Notes: a model not told the origin generated them from the sequence alone. Counted from the stretch's first letter, positions 96 to 15,748 are shown. The stretch: 22,138 nucleotides of DNA from a virus (IMGVR_UViG_3300045988_101675), one strand, 5' to 3'. Numbers and translations: made by a program.

Positions 96-1091
96 TTATG
101 GACGCATTATGGACATTCCTGACACCGGGTTAAGAGTCACTGCATCTTGTAAGAAATCCGGTGCAAAGTGTGCGTAGGTCATAGTTTGCTGAATGTTAGA
201 ATGACCCAGGATGCGCTGCAATGTGATTATGTTACCTCCATTCATTATAAAATGTGTGGCAAATGTATGCCTCAAAACATGCACTGCCTGTCCGTCAGGT
301 AAATCGGGTTTTACTTCCCTGAGAGCGTTGCGCACTTTGTAGTAACTGGCATTAAAAAGCCTGCCTGAATTTTTGGTCTTGATCCGTTTAATCAGGTCCT
401 GCGAAACGGGAATTGTCCTGCGCTTTCCGTTTTTAGTTTTCATAAACGTAACCATCTGGTTAATGATGTGTTCAGCTTTTAAATTAGACACTTCACTCCA
501 GCGTCCACCAGTAGAAAGGCAGACCAGAGTCGCATTTAATTCATCACCATCGAGCATGGATAACAGCCGTGTAATCTCTTCACTGGACAAAAAAGCCATT
601 TCTGTAACAGCTTCACGTAATCGCTTAACCTCACGGAACGGGTTGTGAGAATGGTATTCACCGGCGTCAATTAACTTGGTGAACATCCCGCTCATTATTG
701 CCAGATGCCGATTTACGCTGGCTGGTTTTAGACCATCGTTCATCATTACAACGCGATAATCAGTTATCGTTTTCTTTGTTAGCTGGTCAGCTCTGGACAC
801 TCCCATTTCTGCAAATTTGGCGATTATTGTCGTCAAACGCCCCCGTTCAATATCTCCACGCTCATGTGATTTTCCGTGATATATCCACCATCTGCCTAAC
901 AACTCTGTAAGAGTTCGGCGGTCGGCTGGCTTCTCCAGCCACTCTTTGTTGTGGTAGTTAACCAGTACATGACGTTCGAATGCTTGAGCTTCACCTTTAG
1001 TTTTAAATTTCCGCCTGATACGTTTTCCATCTGCACCCTGCGGTCTGACGTCCACTTCATAACGACCATCATCGAGCTTTTTAATAGACAT
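96..1091 (-). CDS. int: Phage tyrosine integrase (site-specific recombinase), P2 Int-like
   Basis: 331-aa ORF. C-terminal catalytic region carries the tyrosine-recombinase signature (HVLRHTFATH ... LGHSNIQQTMTYAHF). Sits at the prophage edge, next to and co-oriented with the repressor gene, as in P2. Confidence 0.92.
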   Translation of the reverse strand: MSIKKLDDGRYEVDVRPQGADGKRIRRKFKTKGEAQAFERHVLVNYHNKEWLEKPADRRTLTELLGRWWIYHGKSHERGDIERGRLTTIIAKFAEMGVSRADQLTKKTITDYRVVMMNDGLKPASVNRHLAIMSGMFTKLIDAGEYHSHNPFREVKRLREAVTEMAFLSSEEITRLLSMLDGDELNATLVCLSTGGRWSEVSNLKAEHIINQMVTFMKTKNGKRRTIPVSQDLIKRIKTKNSGRLFNASYYKVRNALREVKPDLPDGQAVHVLRHTFATHFIMNGGNIITLQRILGHSNIQQTMTYAHFAPDFLQDAVTLNPVSGMSIMRP

Positions 1092-1184: not shown

Positions 1185-1496
1185 TCAGCCAGTCTTTTGG
1201 TCTGAGTGGTGCAAGGTTGTTGAGTCTTGCCCAATGTGCGCGAGCGCCGGGGCTATTTGTCCGCCAGCGGGATCAGTTTCATCAAACATGAACCAGTCAC
1301 GGTACTTGCGAAATCTTTCAGGCTTGAAAAATTTCATGCCTGCGTCAAAAGACATCTTTACTTTTCCCTGCTCATATCCAGCATAGGTGTTGTAGTTAAT
1401 TCCAGTTAATTCAGCAACTTGCTTCCTTGTCATTCTTTCTGACTCCCGAATAAGTGCGAGTTTCTCTGCTTGAGATGTGATTTGTGTATTTGACAT
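1185..1496 (-). CDS. C: Immunity repressor, P2 C-type
   Basis: Trimmed from the 119-aa track ORF to the internal ATG at 1494-1496 (MSNTQITSQ...), giving 103 aa. The C-terminus GQIAPALAHIGQ...HSDQKTG matches my memory of the P2 C repressor; the N-terminal half is divergent. Divergent from cox, upstream of int. Confidence 0.8.
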   Translation of the reverse strand: MSNTQITSQAEKLALIRESERMTRKQVAELTGINYNTYAGYEQGKVKMSFDAGMKFFKPERFRKYRDWFMFDETDPAGGQIAPALAHIGQDSTTLHHSDQKTG

Positions 1497-1518
1497 GAAT
1501 TGTCGTATCTCGTAATTT
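1490..1518 (+). promoter_or_regulatory. Candidate early promoter Pe: TTGACA (1490-1495), 17-bp spacer, TAATTT (1513-1518), with flanking direct repeats GTCGTAT (1502-1508) and GTTGTAT (1521-1527) as possible C operators
   Basis: Near-consensus sigma70 -35 and -10 hexamers read directly from the sequence. They face cox and overlap the C start codon. P2-type repressors bind direct repeats flanking the Pe -10 element. Confidence 0.5.
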
Positions 1519-1600
1519 ATGTTGTATGCGACACACCAGAACAACGCAGAGCGGCTTCAAATAGCTCTGGTTGAATGGCACCAAAGTTGAGGATATCAAA

Positions 1601-3458: not shown

Positions 3459-3682
3459 TGCCGGACAACGTAGATTTTATTCAGGAACAACAGGCTGAAT
3501 TACTGGAGCGCCAGATTAACGCGGCAAGGGTAAAACATTGCGGTGTTTCTGCGCTGGTTTGCGAAGAGTGTGACGCGCTAATACCTGCTGCCCGTCGTGC
3601 GGCTTATCCGTCAGCCACGCGTTGTGTTTCCTGTCAGTCAGTCTTTGAAGCAAAAAACAAACATTACCGGAGAATGGCATGA
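3458..3682 (+). CDS. TraR/DksA-family C4 zinc-finger protein (P2 orf83-like)
   Basis: 74 aa with two CxxC pairs (CEECDALIP ... CVSCQ), typical of phage TraR-like proteins. Located just upstream of A as in P2. Confidence 0.8.
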   Translation: MPDNVDFIQEQQAELLERQINAARVKHCGVSALVCEECDALIPAARRAAYPSATRCVSCQSVFEAKNKHYRRMA

Positions 3683-3954
3683 GCATTCGTATTGAAATTG
3701 GCGAACGTTATGTGGTTACCAGTGACAGCTTCCAGTTTATTCTCCACGAGAAAAAGAGAGCGGAAAGCGGTAAAAACGCCGGTCAGGAGTGGCTGGCGGT
3801 GGTTGGTTATTACCCGAAATTAAGCCAGCTCGTTTCCGGCCTGATGCATCACGATATTCTGACCGGAAGCGCAAAATCTTTTGCCGATTTAAACGCGCAG
3901 GTTGAGCAACTCAGCAAGCGTTGCTCAGAGGCTTTTGGCTCACATGGCCGTTAA
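3679..3954 (+). CDS. Hypothetical early protein (91 aa)
   Basis: ORF in the early operon. Its 3' end overlaps the A start by 11 nt. Confidence 0.6.
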   Translation: MSIRIEIGERYVVTSDSFQFILHEKKRAESGKNAGQEWLAVVGYYPKLSQLVSGLMHHDILTGSAKSFADLNAQVEQLSKRCSEAFGSHGR

Positions 3955-6229
3955 AGCCTCCGGGCGTTTTGTCCCTCCGTCAGCATTTGCCGCAGGCACC
4001 GGTAAGGCGTTTACCGGTGCTTATGCATGGAACGCGCCACGCGAGGCCGTCGGGCGCGAAAGACCCCTTACACGTGACGAGATGCGTCAGGTGCAAGGTG
4101 TTTTATCCACGATTAACCGCCTGCCTTACTTTTTGCGCTCGCTGTTTACTTCACGCTATGACTACATCCGGCGCAATAAAAGCCCGGTGCACGGGTTTTA
4201 TTTCCTCACATCCACTTTTCAGCGTCGTTTATGGCCGCGCATTGAGCGTGTGAATCAGCGCCATGAAATGAACACCGACGCGTCGTTACTGTTTCTGGCA
4301 GAGCGTGACCACTATGCGCGCCTGCCGGGAATGAATGACAAGGAGCTGAAAAAGTTTGCCGCCTGTATCTCATCGCAGCTTTTCATGATGTATGAGGAAC
4401 TCAGCGATGCCTGGGTGGATGCACATGGCGAAAAAGAATCGCTGTTTACGGATGAGGCGCAGGATCACCTCTATGGTCATGTTGCTGGCGCTGCACGTGC
4501 TTTCAATATTTCCCCGCTTTACTGGAAAAAATACCGTAAAGGACAGATGACCACGAGGCAGGCATATTCTGCCATTGCCCGCCTGTTTAACGATGAGTGG
4601 TGGACCCATCAGCTTAAAGGCCAGCGTATGCGCTGGCATGAGGCGTTACTGATTGCTGTCGGGGAGGTCAATAAAGACCGTTCTCCTTATGCCAGTAAAC
4701 ATGCCATTCGTGATGTGCGTGCGCGCCGCCAGGCAAATCTGGAATTTCTTAAATCGTGTGACCTTGAAAACAGAGAAACCGGCGAGCGTATCGACCTTAT
4801 CAGTAAGGTGATGGGCAGTATTTCTAATCCTGAAATTCGCCGGATGGAGCTGATGAACACCATTGCCGGTATTGAGCGTTACGCCGCCGCAGAGGGTGAT
4901 GTGGGGATGTTTATCACGCTGACCGCGCCGTCAAAGTATCACCCGACACGTCAGGTCGGAAAAGGCGAAAGTAAAACCGTCCAGCTAAATCACGGCTGGA
5001 ACGATGAGGCATTTAATCCAAAGGATGCGCAGCGTTATCTCTGCCGTATCTGGAGCCTGATGCGTACGGCATTCAAGGATAATGATTTACAGGTCTACGG
5101 TTTGCGTGTCGTCGAGCCACACCACGACGGAACACCGCACTGGCATATGATGCTTTTTTGTAATCCACGCCAGCGTAACCAGATTATCGAAATCATGCGT
5201 CGCTATGCGCTCAAAGAGGATGGCGACGAAAGAGGAGCCGCGCGAAACCGTTTTCAGGCAAAACACCTTAACCGGGGCGGTGCTGCGGGATATATCGCTA
5301 AATACATCTCAAAAAATATCGACGGCTATGCACTGGATGGTCAGCTCGATAACGATACCGGCAGGCCGCTTAAAGATACTGCCGCGGCTGTTACCGCATG
5401 GGCGTCAACGTGGCGCATCCCGCAATTTAAAACGGTTGGTCTGCCGACAATGGGGGCTTACCGTGAACTACGCAAATTGCCTCGTGGCGTCAGCATTGCT
5501 GATGAGTTTGACGAACGCGTCGAGGCTGCACGCGCCGCCGCAGACAGTGGTGATTTTGCGTTGTATATCAGCGCGCAGGGTGGGGCAAATGTTCCGCGCG
5601 ATTGTCAGACTGTCAGGGTTGCCCGTAGCCCGTCGGATGACGTTAACGAGTACGAGGAAGAAGTCGAGAGAGTGGTCGGCATTTACGCGCCGCATCTCGG
5701 CGCGCGTCATATTCATATCACCAGAACGACGGACTGGCGCATTGTGCCGAAAGTGCCGGTCGTTGAGCCTTTGACTTTAAAAAGCGGCATCGCCGCGCCT
5801 CGGAGTCCTGTCAATAACTGTGGAAAACTCACCGGTGGTGATACTTCGTTACCGGCTCCCACACCTTCTGAGCACGCCGCAGCAGTGCTTAATCTGGTTG
5901 ATGACGGTGTTATTGAATGGAATGAACCGGAGGTCGTGAGGGCGCTCAGGGGCGCATTAAAACACGACCTGCGAACGCCAAACCGTCAGCAAAGAAACGG
6001 AAGCCCGTTAAAACCACATGAAATTGCACCATCGGCCAGACTGACCCGGTCGGAAAGAATGCAAATTACCCGTATCCGCGTTGACCTTGCTCAGAACGGT
6101 ATCAGGCCGCAGCGATGGGAGCTTGAGGCGCTGGCGCGTGGCGCGACCGTAAATTATGACGGGAAAAAATTCACGTATCCGGTCGCTGATGAGTGGCCGG
6201 GATTCTCAACAGTAATGGAGTGGAAATGA
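3944..6229 (+). CDS. A: Rolling-circle replication initiation endonuclease gpA (HUH superfamily)
   Basis: Track ORF begins at TTG 3902; trimmed to ATG 3944 (MAVKASGRFVPP...), giving 761 aa, the P2 A length as I recall it. Contains the HUH-like PHWHMMLF motif and the two-tyrosine active-site segment GYIAKYISKNIDGY. Confidence 0.93.
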   Translation: MAVKASGRFVPPSAFAAGTGKAFTGAYAWNAPREAVGRERPLTRDEMRQVQGVLSTINRLPYFLRSLFTSRYDYIRRNKSPVHGFYFLTSTFQRRLWPRIERVNQRHEMNTDASLLFLAERDHYARLPGMNDKELKKFAACISSQLFMMYEELSDAWVDAHGEKESLFTDEAQDHLYGHVAGAARAFNISPLYWKKYRKGQMTTRQAYSAIARLFNDEWWTHQLKGQRMRWHEALLIAVGEVNKDRSPYASKHAIRDVRARRQANLEFLKSCDLENRETGERIDLISKVMGSISNPEIRRMELMNTIAGIERYAAAEGDVGMFITLTAPSKYHPTRQVGKGESKTVQLNHGWNDEAFNPKDAQRYLCRIWSLMRTAFKDNDLQVYGLRVVEPHHDGTPHWHMMLFCNPRQRNQIIEIMRRYALKEDGDERGAARNRFQAKHLNRGGAAGYIAKYISKNIDGYALDGQLDNDTGRPLKDTAAAVTAWASTWRIPQFKTVGLPTMGAYRELRKLPRGVSIADEFDERVEAARAAADSGDFALYISAQGGANVPRDCQTVRVARSPSDDVNEYEEEVERVVGIYAPHLGARHIHITRTTDWRIVPKVPVVEPLTLKSGIAAPRSPVNNCGKLTGGDTSLPAPTPSEHAAAVLNLVDDGVIEWNEPEVVRALRGALKHDLRTPNRQQRNGSPLKPHEIAPSARLTRSERMQITRIRVDLAQNGIRPQRWELEALARGATVNYDGKKFTYPVADEWPGFSTVMEWK

Positions 6230-6681
6230 TGGCAAAAATTCACGAGGTAAAGCTGCACGCAAAATATTTTGACCTTGTGCTGGAAGGAAAGAAACGCGCA
6301 GAGTTTCGGAAAAATGACCGTAATTATGAGCGCGGGGACACATTGATTTTGCATGAATGGGTGCAGGGTGTGTTTACGGGGCGAAAGGTTGAAGCCCGGA
6401 TAACAGATGTTACTGACCTGTCAGACTGGCTGGAAGATTATGTCTTGCTAAGTATTGAGCTGCTTAATACGGGCGCATATAAGATTGTGAACTGGAAAGA
6501 ACTTAGTGAGCGTGGCCTGGTATTCAGAATTAATCATGAAATTATGCATCAGCTCGGCCTTGCTGTTATGTATGAACCAGAGACGGGGATGTCTGGCGGG
6601 GCAATGGTTGCCACGGATGGAGTATGGAACTATTCAGATGAACAGATGGAGCGTGCACAGCAAAACGGGTGGCTCGGATAA
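6226..6681 (+). CDS. ASCH/DUF3850-like domain protein with a C-terminal extension
   Basis: 151 aa. The N-terminus (EVKLHAKYFDLVLEGKKRAEFRKNDRNYERGDTLILHEW) resembles ASCH/DUF3850 domains as I know them. GGAG lies 5 nt upstream. The start overlaps the A stop, suggesting translational coupling. Confidence 0.7.
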   Translation: MMAKIHEVKLHAKYFDLVLEGKKRAEFRKNDRNYERGDTLILHEWVQGVFTGRKVEARITDVTDLSDWLEDYVLLSIELLNTGAYKIVNWKELSERGLVFRINHEIMHQLGLAVMYEPETGMSGGAMVATDGVWNYSDEQMERAQQNGWLG

Positions 6682-6735: not shown

Positions 6736-6894
6736 ATGGCCATTGTTCACCGTCTACAGCAGATTATGGTCAACGAAAATCTGACGCCCGATGAACTAGT
6801 CGGGTGTGCCGAAATAGTCCGGGATAATTACGGGCGACTTAACTATATCGGTATCGGTCAGTCCAGAGTTGCGCCACCACCACGCAGACGATAG
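6736..6894 (+). CDS. Possible small ORF (52 aa)
   Basis: ATG-initiated ORF read by hand, below the 60-aa track cutoff, ending 5 nt before repeat copy 1. No clear Shine-Dalgarno sequence. Confidence 0.25.
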   Translation: MAIVHRLQQIMVNENLTPDELVGCAEIVRDNYGRLNYIGIGQSRVAPPPRRR

Positions 6895-6898
6895 AGAA

Positions 6899-6965
6899 CG
6901 CCGCCAGTCGTGAAACTTGTTTTCAGGGCTGGCGGCGTTGAACAACGAGCGAAGCGAGGCGTTAG
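6899..6965 (+). repeat. Copy 1 of a 67-nt repeat: 39-nt GC-clamped stem-loop (6899-6937) plus a 28-nt tail ending GCGTTAG
   Basis: CGCCGCCAGTCGTGAAA / CTTGT / TTTCAGGGCTGGCGGCG forms a stem of about 17 bp. About 82% identical to copy 2. Lies at the left boundary of the AT-rich insert. Confidence 0.65.
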
Positions 6966-7123
6966 TTGACAGTCATATTTTTACTGCGTTGGTGCTGGTT
7001 TTTGACGGTTGAAAGGAGTTAGCCAGGAGAGCAAAAGCCAACAACTTACAAATATTCAAAAGTAAGCTTCCTGTTGCTAACATAAGGTCGATTTTTTATG
7101 TGGATGATGCAAAAAGGATAGCT

Positions 7124-7855
7124 ATGGATATTGTAATCGCTTTTCTATCACTCGCTTTTTTCGTTGCTTTTTTCATCGGGTTAATCAAGCCATCACTGGT
7201 GCGGATGCCAAACCGTAAACGTGCAAGTGCGGTTTATCTCGGAGGTAGTTTTGCATTGAGCATAATTGGTTCAATACTCTACCCAACAGAAAAAAGCCAG
7301 CCAGTTGCTAAAACTGAAACAGCAACCGTAGCAGAACACCAGGCTCAAAAAACATTCGAATATACTGAAAAAACACTCAAGGAATATCGGAACGAGCCAA
7401 AGAAGACGCGACACGATATTGTGAATAGTTACATTAACTTTAAGAAAGTGCCAGTCACCGCATCAGATGCATTTTATGCCTGCATGAGTGAGTATACATT
7501 TACCAAAGATGATGAGTTGAAACTCGGTGATGTTCTTGGGTGGTGCTTTAATGATTATGAAAATGACCCGAATTCATTAAACAATAAAATCAATCTTGAT
7601 ACATTTCAGAGTAATTTTAGTGGTTGGGATGGTTCTTATCGGCCATTGGAAAAATTAATTAAAGATAATATGAACGATGATTCATCTTATAAACATGTGT
7701 CAACGGTATATCATTTGGTTTTGAATAAAGACCCGCACGCCATTGTGAAAACCACGTTTCGCGGCACTAATGCTTATGGTGGAGTGGTAAAGCAGACCGT
7801 AGCGGCGCGCGTCAACGTGCGAACGGGTGAGGTCGATTCGATACTCGACAATTAA
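7124..7855 (+). CDS. Accessory membrane protein of unknown function: two predicted N-terminal TM helices and a ~180-aa C-terminal domain
   Basis: Track ORF begins at GTG 7100; ATG 7124 has AAGGA 5 nt upstream. Hydrophobic segments IVIAFLSLAFFVAFFIGLI and AVYLGGSFALSIIGSILY. AT-rich, unlike the backbone. No recognisable motif. Confidence 0.7.
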   Translation: MDIVIAFLSLAFFVAFFIGLIKPSLVRMPNRKRASAVYLGGSFALSIIGSILYPTEKSQPVAKTETATVAEHQAQKTFEYTEKTLKEYRNEPKKTRHDIVNSYINFKKVPVTASDAFYACMSEYTFTKDDELKLGDVLGWCFNDYENDPNSLNNKINLDTFQSNFSGWDGSYRPLEKLIKDNMNDDSSYKHVSTVYHLVLNKDPHAIVKTTFRGTNAYGGVVKQTVAARVNVRTGEVDSILDN

Positions 7856-7871
7856 ACAATATAGTGACATA

Positions 7872-7938
7872 CCCCGCCAGTACTGAAACTTGTTTTCAGT
7901 GCTGGCGGGGTTAAACAAAGAGCATCGTGAAGCGTTAG
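7872..7938 (+). repeat. Copy 2 of the 67-nt repeat: stem-loop (7872-7910) plus tail
   Basis: CCCCGCCAGTACTGAAA / CTTGT / TTTCAGTGCTGGCGGGG. Same architecture as copy 1, with the second stem base pair swapped from G-C to C-G. Lies between the two accessory genes. Confidence 0.65.
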
Positions 7939-7963
7939 ATTAAAATCATTTGAGGCAGATAAA

Positions 7964-8626
7964 ATGCTTTGGAAAATAATTTCTTTTTTATTAGTTGGTA
8001 TTTGTATGTTTGCTTTCGGTTTATGGTTAGGCTCTATTCAGGCTGAATGGGCGAAACCAGAGCATAAAGATGCTGTTGCTTATTTAGCAATGATCGGAGG
8101 ATGGGTCTCAGGAATTGCAACGTCAGTCGCAGTAATTATTTCATTGTATGCGACATATCAAGCATCACAGAATAATGTTGAAAAATTAAGTTTAACCTAT
8201 AAGCCTTACTCTAGCGTAGACAAAGAAAATTATTGTGCCAATATTGAGGTTGTAAATTTGCGGAGCGTTCCGGTACATATACAAGAGTTTTGCTTAGAAT
8301 TTAGTGGGATAAATAATCATTTCAACATAAACGAACTAAAAGCAAATGGGAAGGAGATACCGTATTCTTTATACCAAGTAGGAGAGAAATGGGAGTTTGC
8401 CTTCTATCCTTTTGCAAAGCTGGGAAATATGAGGTTCTATAAAAGCTTAAGTGAGAATGGTAATCCAAGTTTTCGTAGTGGTTTCTTTGTGGTTAAAACA
8501 TCAATGAAACAATACAAATTAAGGATACCTAATGAGCTTTTGGAAATTATGAAAATTAGCTATGAAAAGCAAATGGAAATACGGAAGAATTATAAGGAAA
8601 TGCATGGTAAAGAGATGGGCTTTTAA
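7964..8626 (+). CDS. Accessory membrane protein of unknown function: two predicted N-terminal TM helices and a ~150-aa C-terminal domain
   Basis: 220-aa ORF with GAGG 8 nt upstream of the ATG. Hydrophobic segments IISFLLVGICMFAFGLWLG and VAYLAMIGGWVSGIATSVAVIISLY. Very AT-rich. Last gene before cos. Confidence 0.7.
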   Translation: MLWKIISFLLVGICMFAFGLWLGSIQAEWAKPEHKDAVAYLAMIGGWVSGIATSVAVIISLYATYQASQNNVEKLSLTYKPYSSVDKENYCANIEVVNLRSVPVHIQEFCLEFSGINNHFNINELKANGKEIPYSLYQVGEKWEFAFYPFAKLGNMRFYKSLSENGNPSFRSGFFVVKTSMKQYKLRIPNELLEIMKISYEKQMEIRKNYKEMHGKEMGF

Positions 8627-8749
8627 AACGCATTAACAAGCATCAAATTGCATGCGCATCCCTCCCCTGTTGTGTTTGAGCGCTGCCAGTGATGGTGTGC
8701 CTCTGGCGTGTTCGTGCAACTGCATTAAAACCGCCCCATGAAGCGGGCG

Positions 8750-8937: not shown

Positions 8938-9972
8938 TCAGCCGTTGTCAGTGTCCAGTGAGTAGTTTTTAAAGCGGATGACCTCCTGGCCGAGCCAGCC
9001 GTTTATTTCCCGAATCCTGTCCTGTAGCGGGATAAGCTCATTGCGGACAAAGACCTTTGCCACTTTCTCAATATCACCCAGAGACCCGACGTTCTCCGGC
9101 TTGCCGCCCATCAACTGAAAGGGGATGCGGTGCGCGTCCAGCAGGTCAGCGGCGCTGGCTTTTTTGATATTAAAAAAATCGTCCTTCGTCGCCACTTCAC
9201 TGAGGGGGATAATTTTAATGCCGTCGGCTTTCCCCTGTGGGGCATAGAGAAACAGGTTTTTAAAGTTGTTGCGGCCTTTCGACTTGACCATGTTTTCGCG
9301 AAGCATTTCGATATCGTTGCGATCCTGCACGGCATCAGTGACGTACATGATGTATCCGGCATGAGCGCCGTTTTCGTAATACTTGCGGCGGAACAGCGTA
9401 GCTGATTCATTCAGCCAGGCAGAATTAAGGGCGCTGAGATATTCCGGCAGGCCGTACAGCTCCTGATTAATATCCGGCTCCAGCAGGTGAAACACGGAGC
9501 CGGGCGCGAAAGGTGTCGGCTCGTTGAAGGACGGCACCCACCAGTAAACATCCTCCTCAACACCACGGCGGGTATATTTTGCCGGTGAGGTTTCCAGTCT
9601 GATGACCTTACCGGTGGTGCTGTAGCGCTTTTCCAGAAACGCATTACCGAACACCAGAAAATCCAGCACAAAGCGGCTGAAATCCTGCTGGGAAAGCCAC
9701 GGGTGCGGAATAAACGTTGAAGCCAGAATATTACGTTTGACGTAAATCGGTGAGCTGTGATGTACGGCAGCACGCAGGCTTTTTGCCAGACCGGTAAAGC
9801 TGACCGGTGGCTCATACCATCTGCCGTTACTGATGCACTCGACGTAATCCAGAATGTCACGGCGGTCGAGTACCGGCACCGGCTCACCAAAGGTGAATGC
9901 CTCCATTTTCGGGGCGCTGGCGGTGATTGTTTTTGCCGCAGGTTGCGGTGTTTTCCCTTTTTTCTTGCTCAT
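8938..9972 (-). CDS. Q: Portal protein gpQ
   Basis: 344 aa, the P2 Q length as I recall it. First gene after cos, co-oriented with the large terminase, with a 1-nt overlap between the P stop and Q start. Confidence 0.93.
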   Translation of the reverse strand: MSKKKGKTPQPAAKTITASAPKMEAFTFGEPVPVLDRRDILDYVECISNGRWYEPPVSFTGLAKSLRAAVHHSSPIYVKRNILASTFIPHPWLSQQDFSRFVLDFLVFGNAFLEKRYSTTGKVIRLETSPAKYTRRGVEEDVYWWVPSFNEPTPFAPGSVFHLLEPDINQELYGLPEYLSALNSAWLNESATLFRRKYYENGAHAGYIMYVTDAVQDRNDIEMLRENMVKSKGRNNFKNLFLYAPQGKADGIKIIPLSEVATKDDFFNIKKASAADLLDAHRIPFQLMGGKPENVGSLGDIEKVAKVFVRNELIPLQDRIREINGWLGQEVIRFKNYSLDTDNG

Positions 9973-11744
9973 CAGTAAAACTCCAGAATGGTGGATGTCA
10001 GCGGAGTGCTGATACCGGCGGTGAGTGGCTCATTTAACAGGGCGTGCATGGTCGCCCAGGCGAGGTCGGCGTGGCTGGCTTCCTCGCTGCGGCTGGCCTC
10101 ATAGGTGGCGCTGCGTCCGCTGCTGGTCATGGTCTTGCGGATAGCCATAAACGAGCTGGTGATGTCGGTGGCGCTGACGTCATATTCCAGACAGCCACGG
10201 CGGATGACGTCTTTTGCCTTGAGCACCATTGCGGTTTTCATTTCCGGCGTGTAGCGGATATCGCGCGCGGCGGGATAGAACGAGCGCACGAGCTGGAACA
10301 CGCCGACACCGAGGCCGGTGGCATCAATCCCGATGTATTCAACGTTATATTTTTCGGTGAGTTTGCGGATGGATTCCGCCTGGGTGGCAAAGTCCATGCC
10401 TTTCCACTGGTGACGCTCAAGTATTCTGAATTTGCCACCGGCCACCACCGGCGGTGCCAGTACCACGCATCCGGCGCTGTCGCCACGGTGTGACGGGTCG
10501 TAACCAATCCATACCGGGCGGGAGCCGAACGGATTGGCGGCAAACGGCGCATAGTCTTCCCATTCTTCCAGCGTGTCGACCATGCAGCGTTGCAGCTCCT
10601 CGAACGGGAACACCGACGCCTTGTCGTCAACAAATTCACACATGAACAGGTTTTTAAAATCGTCGGCGCTGTTTTCACGTTTGAGCTGCTCAATGTCGAA
10701 CAGCGTGCAGCCGCCTTTCAGGGCGTCCTCAATGGTGACAATCTGCCGCCACTGGCCGTCCGCACAGAGAAGACCACCGGCAAGAGCGTTATGACTGACG
10801 TCTATTTCCACGCGTTCGGCGGCGCTGGCGCGTCCCCGGTTAAACAGTTCACCCGACCAGAACGGGTAGGCGTCGTGCGCCAGCGTGGACGGGGTGGAGA
10901 AATAGGTCGAGCGCAGGTGACTCTGTGAGGCCATACCTGATGCCACCTTACGCAGTACCTGAAAATTCGGGATCCAGAAAATCTCATCGACGTACAGGTC
11001 GCCGTTATGGCTCTGCGCGGTGTTGGAGTTGGTGCCGAGAAAAATCAGTTTTGCGCCGTTATTGCCCAGGACAATCGGGTCACCGGTCAGGTCAACGTCA
11101 ACCAGCCGGGCAAAGGCGATGATGTATTCGCGGAACACATACGCCTGCGTTTTACTGGCCGACAGAAAAATCTGGTTATGACCGGTTTTCAGGGCGCGCA
11201 GCAGCGCCTCGCGGGAAAAATAAAACGTCGCGCCAATCTGGCGGGATTTCAGGATATCGCGGATGCGGTGCTCAAGCCCGGCGCGATACCAGTGCAACTG
11301 ATAGTCGAAAGACTGCTCAAAGAAAATCTGCTCCAGCTTTTCGATGGCCTCGTCACTGAAAAAATTCTTTTTCGGTTTGCGACGCCCGCCTTTGTTGCGG
11401 TTAGCGACGTTCGGATTAAGGTCTGCCTCGTTGCCGGTCTGACTGTAGCGGTTGACCCGCGCCAGTCGTTCAATCTGGCGTCCCAGCAGGTCAATTTCCT
11501 TGAAGTCACCGCCGGTTTTCTGCGGTTTGATGATGAGCTGGGTCAGCCGCGCTTCCAGACTCATTTCGACACGGCTGATGGGGGCAACGCTGTCCCAGCC
11601 GTCGCGCTGTTTCCAGCTCTGCACCGTCGGGCGTTTCATCTGCAACATGGCGGCAATCTGCGGCACGGAAAACCCCTGCCAGTACAGCAGCGCCGCCTGA
11701 CGACGCGGATCGTGTAAAAGAGTGGTGTCTGTGGTGATGGTCAT
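9972..11744 (-). CDS. P: Terminase large (ATPase) subunit gpP
   Basis: Track ORF begins at TTG; trimmed to ATG (MTITTDTTLLHD...), giving 590 aa, the P2 P length as I recall it. Confidence 0.93.
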   Translation of the reverse strand: MTITTDTTLLHDPRRQAALLYWQGFSVPQIAAMLQMKRPTVQSWKQRDGWDSVAPISRVEMSLEARLTQLIIKPQKTGGDFKEIDLLGRQIERLARVNRYSQTGNEADLNPNVANRNKGGRRKPKKNFFSDEAIEKLEQIFFEQSFDYQLHWYRAGLEHRIRDILKSRQIGATFYFSREALLRALKTGHNQIFLSASKTQAYVFREYIIAFARLVDVDLTGDPIVLGNNGAKLIFLGTNSNTAQSHNGDLYVDEIFWIPNFQVLRKVASGMASQSHLRSTYFSTPSTLAHDAYPFWSGELFNRGRASAAERVEIDVSHNALAGGLLCADGQWRQIVTIEDALKGGCTLFDIEQLKRENSADDFKNLFMCEFVDDKASVFPFEELQRCMVDTLEEWEDYAPFAANPFGSRPVWIGYDPSHRGDSAGCVVLAPPVVAGGKFRILERHQWKGMDFATQAESIRKLTEKYNVEYIGIDATGLGVGVFQLVRSFYPAARDIRYTPEMKTAMVLKAKDVIRRGCLEYDVSATDITSSFMAIRKTMTSSGRSATYEASRSEEASHADLAWATMHALLNEPLTAGISTPLTSTILEFY

Positions 11745-11917
11745 GAATACCTCGCCGTGATGAATACACGGCAAGGCTACTGAGTCGCGCCCCGCGATTC
11801 GCTAAGGTGCTGTTGTGTCAGTGATAAGCCATCCGGGACTGATGGCGGAGGATGCGCATCGTCGGGAAACTGATGCCGACATGTGACTCCTCTAATCACT
11901 ATTCAGGACTCCTGACA
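11745..11917. promoter_or_regulatory. Divergent late promoter region between P and O, containing the dyad GCCATC-N7-GATGGC (11828-11846)
   Basis: Intergenic region between divergently transcribed late operons. P2 late promoters are activator-dependent. I searched for the TGT-N12-ACA element and did not find an exact match, so placement is approximate. Confidence 0.4.
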
Positions 11918-15466: not shown

Positions 15467-15748
15467 ATGACAGCAGAAGAAAAAAGCGTCCTGTCGCTTT
15501 TCATGATTGGGGTGCTGATTGTTGTCGGCAAGGTGCTTGCCGGTGGTGAACCCATCACCCCGCGTCTGTTTATCGGGCGCATGTTGCTCGGTGGTTTTGT
15601 CTCGATGGTTGCCGGTGTTGTTCTGGTGCAGTTTCCTGACCTGTCACTGCCTGCGGTGTGCGGCATCGGCTCCATGCTGGGTATCGCCGGTTATCAGGTG
15701 ATTGAGATTGCCATTCAGCGCCGCTTTAAGGGCAGGGGGAAACCGTAA
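15467..15748 (+). CDS. Y: Holin gpY
   Basis: 93 aa with hydrophobic helices (LSLFMIGVLIVVGKVLAG, LLGGFVSMVAGVVLVQF, GSMLGIAGYQVI) and a charged C-terminus. Immediately upstream of the endolysin gene. Confidence 0.85.
   Translation: MTAEEKSVLSLFMIGVLIVVGKVLAGGEPITPRLFIGRMLLGGFVSMVAGVVLVQFPDLSLPAVCGIGSMLGIAGYQVIEIAIQRRFKGRGKP

Follow-up and report, generated by a model that had tools for sequence, protein, structure and literature searches.

A mobile membrane-protein gene beside cos in a P2-type prophage, with an exchangeable soluble domain and a possible role in phage exclusion

The 22,138-nucleotide viral sequence IMGVR_UViG_3300045988_101675 (hereafter, the window) is identified as a P2-type prophage by Pfam-based gene calls. 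The last open reading frame (ORF) before its cohesive-end site cos, termed gene 2 (7964..8626, plus strand), encodes a 220-residue protein and follows gene 1, a homolog of orf97 of phage 186. Gene 2 is a prophage accessory gene (a "moron") that moves independently, and we put at roughly 45% the probability that its product is a stand-alone phage-exclusion membrane protein of the superinfection-exclusion or abortive-infection type. Three groups of observations lead to the exclusion reading. The first is the placement of gene 2 in the A-Q hotspot of P2-like phages beside Orf97, noted as blocking phage 186, together with the defense genes that neighbor its relatives elsewhere. The second is the combination of a conserved transmembrane (TM) anchor with a variable domain and a mosaic breakpoint at the junction of the two. 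The third comprises persistent AT-richness, LexA boxes in six types of genomic context and the distance of gene 2 from the lysis cassette.

The gene 2 ORF extends exactly from an ATG at 7964 to 8626. A word-indexed search recovered 22 homologous clusters at 43-99% identity, with names from E. coli, Salmonella, Enterobacter and Kosakonia, and an exhaustive profile search of 1.84 billion representative proteins recovered 48 clusters at E ≤ 1e-3, nearly all of 180-230 amino acids (aa). Pairwise dN/dS values within the family range from 0.03 to 0.4. Since the homologs are uniform in length and dN/dS is below 1, gene 2 is a genuine gene, as an initial annotation made from the sequence had proposed. 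Conservation and dN/dS rule out a chance ORF in an AT-rich spacer, the probability of which is negligible. The protein matches phrog_16957, of unknown function, with E = 8.5e-69 (residues 1-207 against profile positions 14-221 of 223), and it has the features that define the family, namely a two-TM hairpin and a beta-sandwich, a uniform length of about 205-225 aa and a signature in the second membrane helix (TM2). A tblastn match to gene 2 (27% identity, 576 bp) was also seen in Peduovirus P22H4 (L029, 1501-2076) and in phage 9W; the CDS annotated there is just 270 bp long, and this copy may be degraded or mis-annotated.

No match of significance was found to Pfam, NCBIfam or PDB sequence profiles with gene 2 or with 36 diverse relatives, the scans yielding sub-threshold noise in the TM region (for example, DUF996 and Tetraspanin). 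PADLOC-DB v2.0.0 likewise returned 0 families for gene 2 at E ≤ 1 and 0 for the 36 members at E ≤ 0.01, and all PHROG matches of gene 2 are to families of unknown function. No mention of the family was found in the literature under its RefSeq accessions or its PHROG; a 2026 NAR paper on the hotspot does not discuss it, and papers on Eganvirus and on P2 diversity contain nothing on it. As judged by these comparisons, gene 2 would represent an uncharacterized family without a detectable relative among known defense or exclusion proteins.

Gene 2 has a GC content of 34.5% and a third-codon-position GC content (GC3) of 32%, compared with 53-57% GC in the phage core genes, 52% GC in the whole window and a GC3 of 64-71% in the portal, terminase and capsid genes. 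The initial annotation had recognized this AT bias correctly but had read it as consistent with recent horizontal acquisition. All the family members examined lie 2-18 GC points (most of them 10-18) under the GC content of their own locus, and even the members inside 64%-GC phages are themselves 47-48% GC. AT-richness is thus a stable family trait and not a mark of recent arrival; being family-wide, it is no evidence for recent acquisition, and persistently low GC is common for hotspot cargo. Horizontal exchange is nonetheless real, on account of recombination patterns and not of the AT bias.

In a Kyte-Doolittle analysis with 19-residue windows, values over the threshold of 1.6 are confined to residues 1-27 and 40-62, in agreement with the two N-terminal hydrophobic helices described initially. 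An AlphaFold2 (AF2) model built from 22 sequences (mean pLDDT 80, pTM 0.62) agrees, with a helical hairpin (residues 2-28 and 32-70) followed by beta-sandwich strands within residues 75-187, a helix at 153-164 and a C-terminal helix at 190-214. The modeled beta-sandwich appears to be a generic fold. The parts of gene 2 are as follows.

7952..7955, plus strand: GAGG Shine-Dalgarno motif, read from the sequence, 8 nt before the gene 2 ATG
7964..8626, plus strand: gene 2 CDS (ORF call), 220 aa and stop, phrog_16957 member
7967..8044, plus strand: membrane helix 1, residues about 2-27 (hydropathy; AF2 helix 2-28)
8045..8080, plus strand: short acidic, Trp-rich loop, residues 28-39, predicted to be periplasmic (alignment and charge count)
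8081..8149, plus strand: membrane helix 2, residues 40-62, carrying the family signature, the most conserved element
8186..8524, plus strand: variable beta-sandwich domain, residues 75-187, predicted to be cytoplasmic
8531..8623, plus strand: C-terminal helix and Lys/Glu-rich tail, residues 190-220 (AF2 helix 190-214; alignments)

Conservation is concentrated in TM2. Among the 36 diverse members, the signature M-(L/I)-G-G-W-V-S-G-x-A-T-x-x-A-V-x-V-S-L is the best conserved stretch, and G45, W47 and A56, all in TM2, are invariant. The family alignments also show a near-invariant E73 after TM2 and a conserved G140 in the sandwich. Mean column entropy is 1.12 bits in TM2, 2.1 in TM1, 2.66 in the sandwich and 2.9 in the C-terminal helix. 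The soluble part (residues 63-220, 158 residues) contains 14.6% F+W+Y, 16 K and 16 E, and the last 24 residues read KISYEKQMEIRKNYKEMHGKEMGF, so that the aromatic-rich domain and the charged tail are as first described; the Lys/Glu-rich tail is specific to the close clade and unconserved beyond it. Every member has K/R at its N-terminus, with as many as 6 in the distant ones, and TM2 is followed by K/R-rich sequence such as DRQRRE; the inter-helix loop averages 1.1 K+R versus 2.1 D+E across the family, and no cysteine is conserved. Given K/R flanking the hairpin, an acidic, Trp-rich loop and the lack of a conserved cysteine, the protein probably adopts an N-in/C-in topology with a cytoplasmic sandwich.

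The soluble domain differs sharply from the membrane anchor in its history. The loci compared here fall on two backbones, P2-type (A protein at least 97% identical, ASCH gene present, no Tum) and 186-type (A protein 37% identical, Tum present), and two segments of the window stand out in comparisons between loci.

7700..8170, plus strand: conserved recombination island, comprising the 3' end of gene 1, an intergenic hairpin element and the first third of gene 2, which codes for the TM hairpin
8175..8690, plus strand: variable segment, comprising the gene 2 soluble domain up to the conserved cos region

The island shares 85-97% DNA identity with a 186-type E. coli prophage (L005), compared with 50-77% in its flanks. 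Identity collapses to 50-77% at ~8175, which is the junction of TM2 and the soluble domain, and is restored at the cos region. Within the variable segment, sliding-window identity to L005 and to a further locus (L013) is 35-77%, and dS is 1.2-1.4 or saturated. Based on the sharp drop at the domain junction and the recovery at cos, the soluble domain behaves as a swappable cassette flanked by two conserved anchors. A P2-type and a 186-type locus (L009 and L011) further differ by a dS of ~1.7 in gene 1, compared with 0.10 in the TM part and 0.32 in the C-terminal domain of gene 2, and are near-identical from ~130 bp before the gene 1 stop to ~130 bp past the gene 2 stop, which shows a recent move of the cassette between the two backbones. 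The C-terminal domain shows a dN of 0.2-0.6 and an omega of 0.2-0.4, versus 0.01-0.12 and 0.03-0.27 for the TM part; selection is purifying overall, and pairwise dN/dS gives no sign of gene-wide positive selection.

These features suggest how the protein might work. Gene 2 would be an inner-membrane protein with an N-in/C-in two-helix hairpin and a cytoplasmic beta-sandwich and terminal helix; TM2, rich in small residues (GGWVSGxAT), would form a constant membrane-acting or oligomerizing module, and the recombination-swapped cytoplasmic domain would set the recognition target. A bolder version, which we regard as tentative and on the whole doubtful, is that the family forms a new modular single-protein system, in which a constant two-helix effector is combined with a swapped beta-sandwich sensor and is often wired to the SOS response, so that immunity would rise under DNA damage.

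The slot of gene 2 is the replicase-to-portal (A-Q), cos-proximal hotspot of P2-like phages. Of the four plus-strand ORFs that separate gene A from cos, gene 2 is the last, as claimed initially; 124 bp without a further ORF separate its end from the cohesive end. The 19-nt cohesive-end sequence of P2 (taken from PMC3931495) has a single exact match in the window, where none is expected by chance.

3902-6229: replication protein A (Pfam)
6193-6681, plus strand: ASCH/DUF3850 and DUF7415 protein, overlapping the end of gene A
6736-6894, plus strand: small ORF of 52 aa (phrog_11386), conserved, preceding the first copy of a 79-nt repeat
7124..7855 (ORF from GTG 7100), plus strand: gene 1, phage 186 Orf97 homolog, 243 aa
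8750-8768, plus strand: cos, P2-type 19-nt cohesive end GGCGAGGCGGGGAAAGCAC
8938-9972, minus strand: portal Q (Pfam), the next gene beyond cos

In P2-like phages, the A-Q hotspot is home to old/tin and to several anti-phage systems that have been validated (Rousset et al. 2022, PMC9122126), and Table S5A of the same work gives an arrangement of this kind, DUF3850/ASCH with three hypothetical proteins, without a function. Like this cargo, gene 2 occupies the common slot, is AT-rich and highly polymorphic, and is exchanged among related phages; it differs in that no known-system model in PADLOC matches it. The AC1 "2TM + 1TM + TIR" system (PMC9122126) was considered as a home for the family and set aside, the sequence of its first protein being unrelated by inspection.

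The one functional note on record for this neighborhood concerns the gene immediately upstream, gene 1. Gene 1 matches phrog_3403 (E = 4.6e-145), a family absent from the PHROG matches of gene 2, with the alignment starting at residue 9 of the GTG-started ORF. The true start is likely ATG 7124, giving 243 aa, because the PHROG profile and all the 243-aa homologs, including 186 Orf97, align from there. It is 80% identical to phage 186 Orf97, whose gene is placed second in the LexA-repressed p95 operon, after the antirepressor gene tum, by the phage 186 GenBank record, with the note "expression from plasmid blocks 186 infection". In the literature Orf97 receives passing mention only, and the BTP5 transcriptomics paper does not cover it.

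Orf97 and gene 2 both begin with a predicted two-helix membrane hairpin and continue with some 160-180 residues of soluble domain; they also share AT-richness (40% GC in Orf97), an operon and hotspot just before cos, and the character of a non-essential accessory gene. The initial annotation had spoken of the same architecture in both proteins, and this resemblance proves superficial. Orf97 has an HdeA/HdeB-like helical subdomain and a four-stranded sheet, unlike the beta-sandwich of gene 2, and both its conservation and its distribution far exceed those of gene 2 (at least 161 Enterobacterales clusters at 90% identity, with a mean column identity of 65%, versus 22 clusters for gene 2). The loop between the membrane helices of gene 1 has a charge of +5, and its family has two invariant cysteines, C120 and C141; for these reasons its C-terminal domain is probably periplasmic, opposite to the predicted cytoplasmic domain of gene 2. 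The lack of sequence similarity between the two, also claimed at the outset, holds in a profile-profile comparison (hhalign probability 3.2%, TM residues only).

Two adjacent proteins, both predicted to be two-TM inner-membrane proteins and to have complementary topologies, might form an obligate two-component membrane system, for example a sensor in the periplasm coupled to an effector in the cytoplasm, or a toxin and its neutralizer. The family gene lies ~110 bp downstream of an Orf97 homolog in 13 of 14 first-pass loci and in 19 of 23 confident IMG/VR loci, on P2-type and 186-type backbones alike, and one conserved DNA island covers the 3' end of gene 1 and the TM region of gene 2. We nevertheless consider an obligate pair improbable. 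Orf97 stands without a family gene in phage 186, where the GenBank note reports blocking on expression from a plasmid. Orf97-like DNA occurs in 88 of 5426 complete E. coli genomes, whereas the clade of the window's gene 2 occurs in 4, a second allele type (L017, 31% aa identity) in about 29-34 and a third (P24A7b) in 7, for a total of ~40 genomes with gene-2-family alleles; roughly half of the Orf97-positive genomes thus lack a family gene, an estimate from separate totals that takes allele carriers as Orf97-positive. The slot after Orf97 is sometimes filled by an unrelated soluble protein of 224 aa, seen in E. coli DG341-1 (L016, 2611-3285) and at least 8 similar genomes; it has no Pfam, NCBIfam or PADLOC match, and the prophages are otherwise near-identical and P2-type. 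In the converse direction, at least 10 independent contexts hold the family gene but no Orf97, as found in the following loci.

L006, L040, L041: A, LexA box, small ORF, family gene; in L006 an AbiL-like pair comes next
L019-L022: LexA box, 63-aa Tum remnant, family gene, PDC-M01/Septu-like pair
L026: DinI-like gene, family gene, AbiU/AIPR gene
L027: P2-type backbone
L038, L048: Tum, then family gene
L018, L028, L024, L025: beside umuD/umuC-like genes, at prophage ends, in GC-rich hosts
L054, 4462-5076: moron between Mu-F-like head-morphogenesis and scaffold/capsid genes

The last of these is a 56-kb, 62%-GC non-P2 phage contig, with neighbor roles read by eye, and its member is 22-23% identical, so the family extends beyond P2-like phages. 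Since the neighbors differ from locus to locus, being AbiL-like, PDC-M01 (Septu-like) or AbiU/AIPR, the family gene is also part of no single defense system. Divergence of the two genes is uncoupled, since 80-81% identity in gene 1 goes with gene 2 identities of 25% in one case and 71% in another, and the shared recombination anchors account for the adjacency. As each gene is found without the other, an obligate pair or toxin-antitoxin relation is not supported. The initial annotation had allowed that the genes work as a pair or independently, had raised the question of whether one is toxic and neutralized by the other, and had named independent occurrence with known unrelated annotations as an outcome that would speak against its proposal; the genes do occur independently, and neither carries a known unrelated annotation. 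As a separate observation, an IS3-family transposase splits the gene 1-gene 2 region in E. coli bR_120_Kylling (H2, NZ_CP182374.1, 2156127-2159514), where the gene 2 DNA is 81% identical.

The recurrent link of the family to the SOS response bears on a further alternative. In six types of context the family gene is preceded by exact CTGT-N8-ACAG boxes that conform to the extended LexA consensus, such as ATACTGTTCATGCATACAGTATA, where chance would give ~0.006 LexA boxes per 400 bp; they are present in the 186-type loci, L006, L018-L022, L026, L028 and L038-L041. In the 186-type loci the box is the annotated p95 of phage 186, ~1400 bp upstream, and the order is p95-tum-orf97-gene 2. The box is 318-331 bp upstream in L006 and L039-L041, 336 bp in L019-L022, 844 bp in L026, and 138-142 bp in L018 (578-593) and L028 (518-533), where it is shared with a divergent UmuD-like gene. 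In the window there is no exact LexA box, and matches with one mismatch number 6 versus 7.0 expected, none of them at a promoter position. Other P2-type loci have no LexA box either, and a sigma-70 consensus scan found no convincing promoter directly upstream of gene 1 or gene 2.

Several of these loci show details of their own. The allele group of L006 (box at 3651) and L039-L041, 31-34% identical to gene 2, has its own LexA box and a small intervening ORF, and in L039 (IMGVR_UViG_2874870605_000008) a second box, besides p95, lies at ~4177 between orf97 and the family gene. The UmuD-like gene divergent from the L018 and L028 members encodes a 126-aa Peptidase_S24 protein, and L024 and L025, both GC-rich P2-like prophages, have the family gene directly beside umuDC-like genes at their end.

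A direct repeat of 79 nt, 80% identical between its two copies, flanks gene 1 in the window.

6898..6976, plus strand: 79-nt repeat, copy 1, upstream of gene 1 (fold z = -5.4)
7871..7949, plus strand: 79-nt repeat, copy 2, in the gene 1-gene 2 interval, containing an 18-bp hairpin at 7871-7911 (-35 kcal/mol, z = -6.6)

Each copy opens with a hairpin of 18-19 bp (-35 to -39 kcal/mol), and the copies differ by a paired change on both arms that keeps the pairing (CGCCGCCAG/CTGGCGGCG versus CCCCGCCAG/CTGGCGGGG). The intergenic hairpin element matches no family in Rfam. It is also present in phage 186, after orf97 and upstream of the annotated p95 terminator t95b. The 79-nt element may mark a boundary of recombination or act in RNA processing or attenuation and, since the element of 186 precedes an annotated terminator, transcription may read through past it into gene 2 in the phages that carry gene 2. 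In the 186-type relatives gene 2 lies at the end of the LexA-controlled tum-orf97 operon and would therefore be made on SOS induction. The P2-type window received orf97 and gene 2 as a transplant without tum or a LexA box, and expression of gene 2 there would presumably depend on read-through or a weak promoter.

The repeated occurrence of the family gene downstream of full-consensus LexA boxes, and the hint of read-through from the element upstream of the p95 terminator, would also suit a gene that serves the phage's own induction or lytic program, as an SOS-operon membrane protein that alters the envelope, cell division or the timing of lysis; the conserved TM2 could then dock on a conserved host membrane protein. 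We think this role unlikely. Its absence from phage 186 and from roughly half of the Orf97-positive E. coli genomes makes gene 2 dispensable for induction. P2-type prophages without tum or a LexA box, the window included, carry it, the distant members are morons in head-gene clusters or at prophage ends, and a hypervariable cytoplasmic domain is hard to square with a housekeeping phage function. The phage also encodes a separate holin elsewhere. A holin or lysis role for gene 2 itself was rejected, as the protein has 220 aa, lies ~7 kb from the holin gene (15467-15748) and has no holin Pfam match.

Exclusion by a small membrane protein has precedents. T4 Imm, P22 SieA and SieB, HK97 gp15 and lambda RexB are small inner-membrane superinfection-exclusion or abortive-infection proteins and, like gene 2, are phage- or prophage-encoded and non-essential; they are membrane-embedded, as gene 2 is predicted to be, and act against other phages. 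Gene 2 has no detectable homology to them, its PHROG matches being all of unknown function, and none of them is known to have a swappable cytoplasmic beta-sandwich domain of ~150 residues. The best match among PDB sequence profiles, which is not significant (E = 0.17), is to archaeal type IV pilins/archaellins, in which a hydrophobic helix precedes an Ig-like sandwich (PDB identifier 8fk7). Gene 2 differs from these in having two membrane helices, no N-terminus of the prepilin-peptidase type and a bacterial prophage as its home; the resemblance is one of general architecture only, and gene 2 does not belong to a type IV pilin/archaellin-like family.

Four points weigh against a role in exclusion. 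No homology to a characterized exclusion or defense protein is detectable in PADLOC, Pfam, NCBIfam or PHROG. Guilt by association within a hotspot is a weak argument, given that partitioning systems and toxins share it. The faster substitution of the C-terminal domain, at an omega of 0.2-0.4, fits relaxed constraint no less than it does an arms race, and the predicted topology draws solely on charge distribution and the lack of conserved cysteines. To these may be added the window's lack of a convincing promoter or LexA box for gene 2.

The mixed nature of the hotspot also bears on whether gene 2 might be a lysogenic-conversion gene whose benefit to the host is unrelated to phages, such as membrane stress tolerance, colonization or bacteriocin immunity. 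Its moron-like placement, AT-richness and predicted membrane localization would agree with such a role, and genes unrelated to defense do occur in the P2 hotspot, among them those for cytolethal distending toxin and for partition systems (PMC9122126). Against this stand the lack of similarity to such families in Pfam and NCBIfam, the restriction of the family, within the sample examined, to phages and prophages, and the swapping of the cytoplasmic domain together with the linkage to SOS operons, which better fit conflict among mobile elements. We give lysogenic conversion of this kind little chance of being the explanation.

Besides tail protein X and a tail fiber, the remaining genes identified by Pfam in the window are as follows.

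96-1091, minus strand: integrase (Pfam)
1185-1544, minus strand: HTH repressor (Pfam)
1571-1957: Cox (Pfam)
9972-11774, minus strand: large terminase P (Pfam)
15467-15748: holin Y (PF04550, E = 2.6e-42), in the late operon

An IMG/VR metagenomic viral contig (L007) is 100% identical to the window across the A-cos region. In a related E. coli prophage (L004), the matching stretch (4749-4955) bears a RefSeq-annotated protein of 68 aa, which was not aligned to the 52-aa ORF of the window.

Membrane accessory genes in a prophage defense hotspot, beside a gene noted to block infection, are already known as a kind, and the family itself is uncharacterized; its linkage to SOS and the position of the breakpoint between the two domains add useful, modestly surprising detail. 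Current concepts stay unchanged, as the hotspot is already known for such cargo and the function of gene 2 is one that we infer. If the exclusion reading is true, gene 2 would be a very compact and unstudied membrane anti-phage module, a single gene of 660 bp with natural, swappable specificity domains, and would offer insight into prophage immunity that is diversified by domain shuffling and coupled to the SOS response. The analysis also clarifies the SOS operon of phage 186, old and barely studied, which has a third gene in many relatives of this phage.

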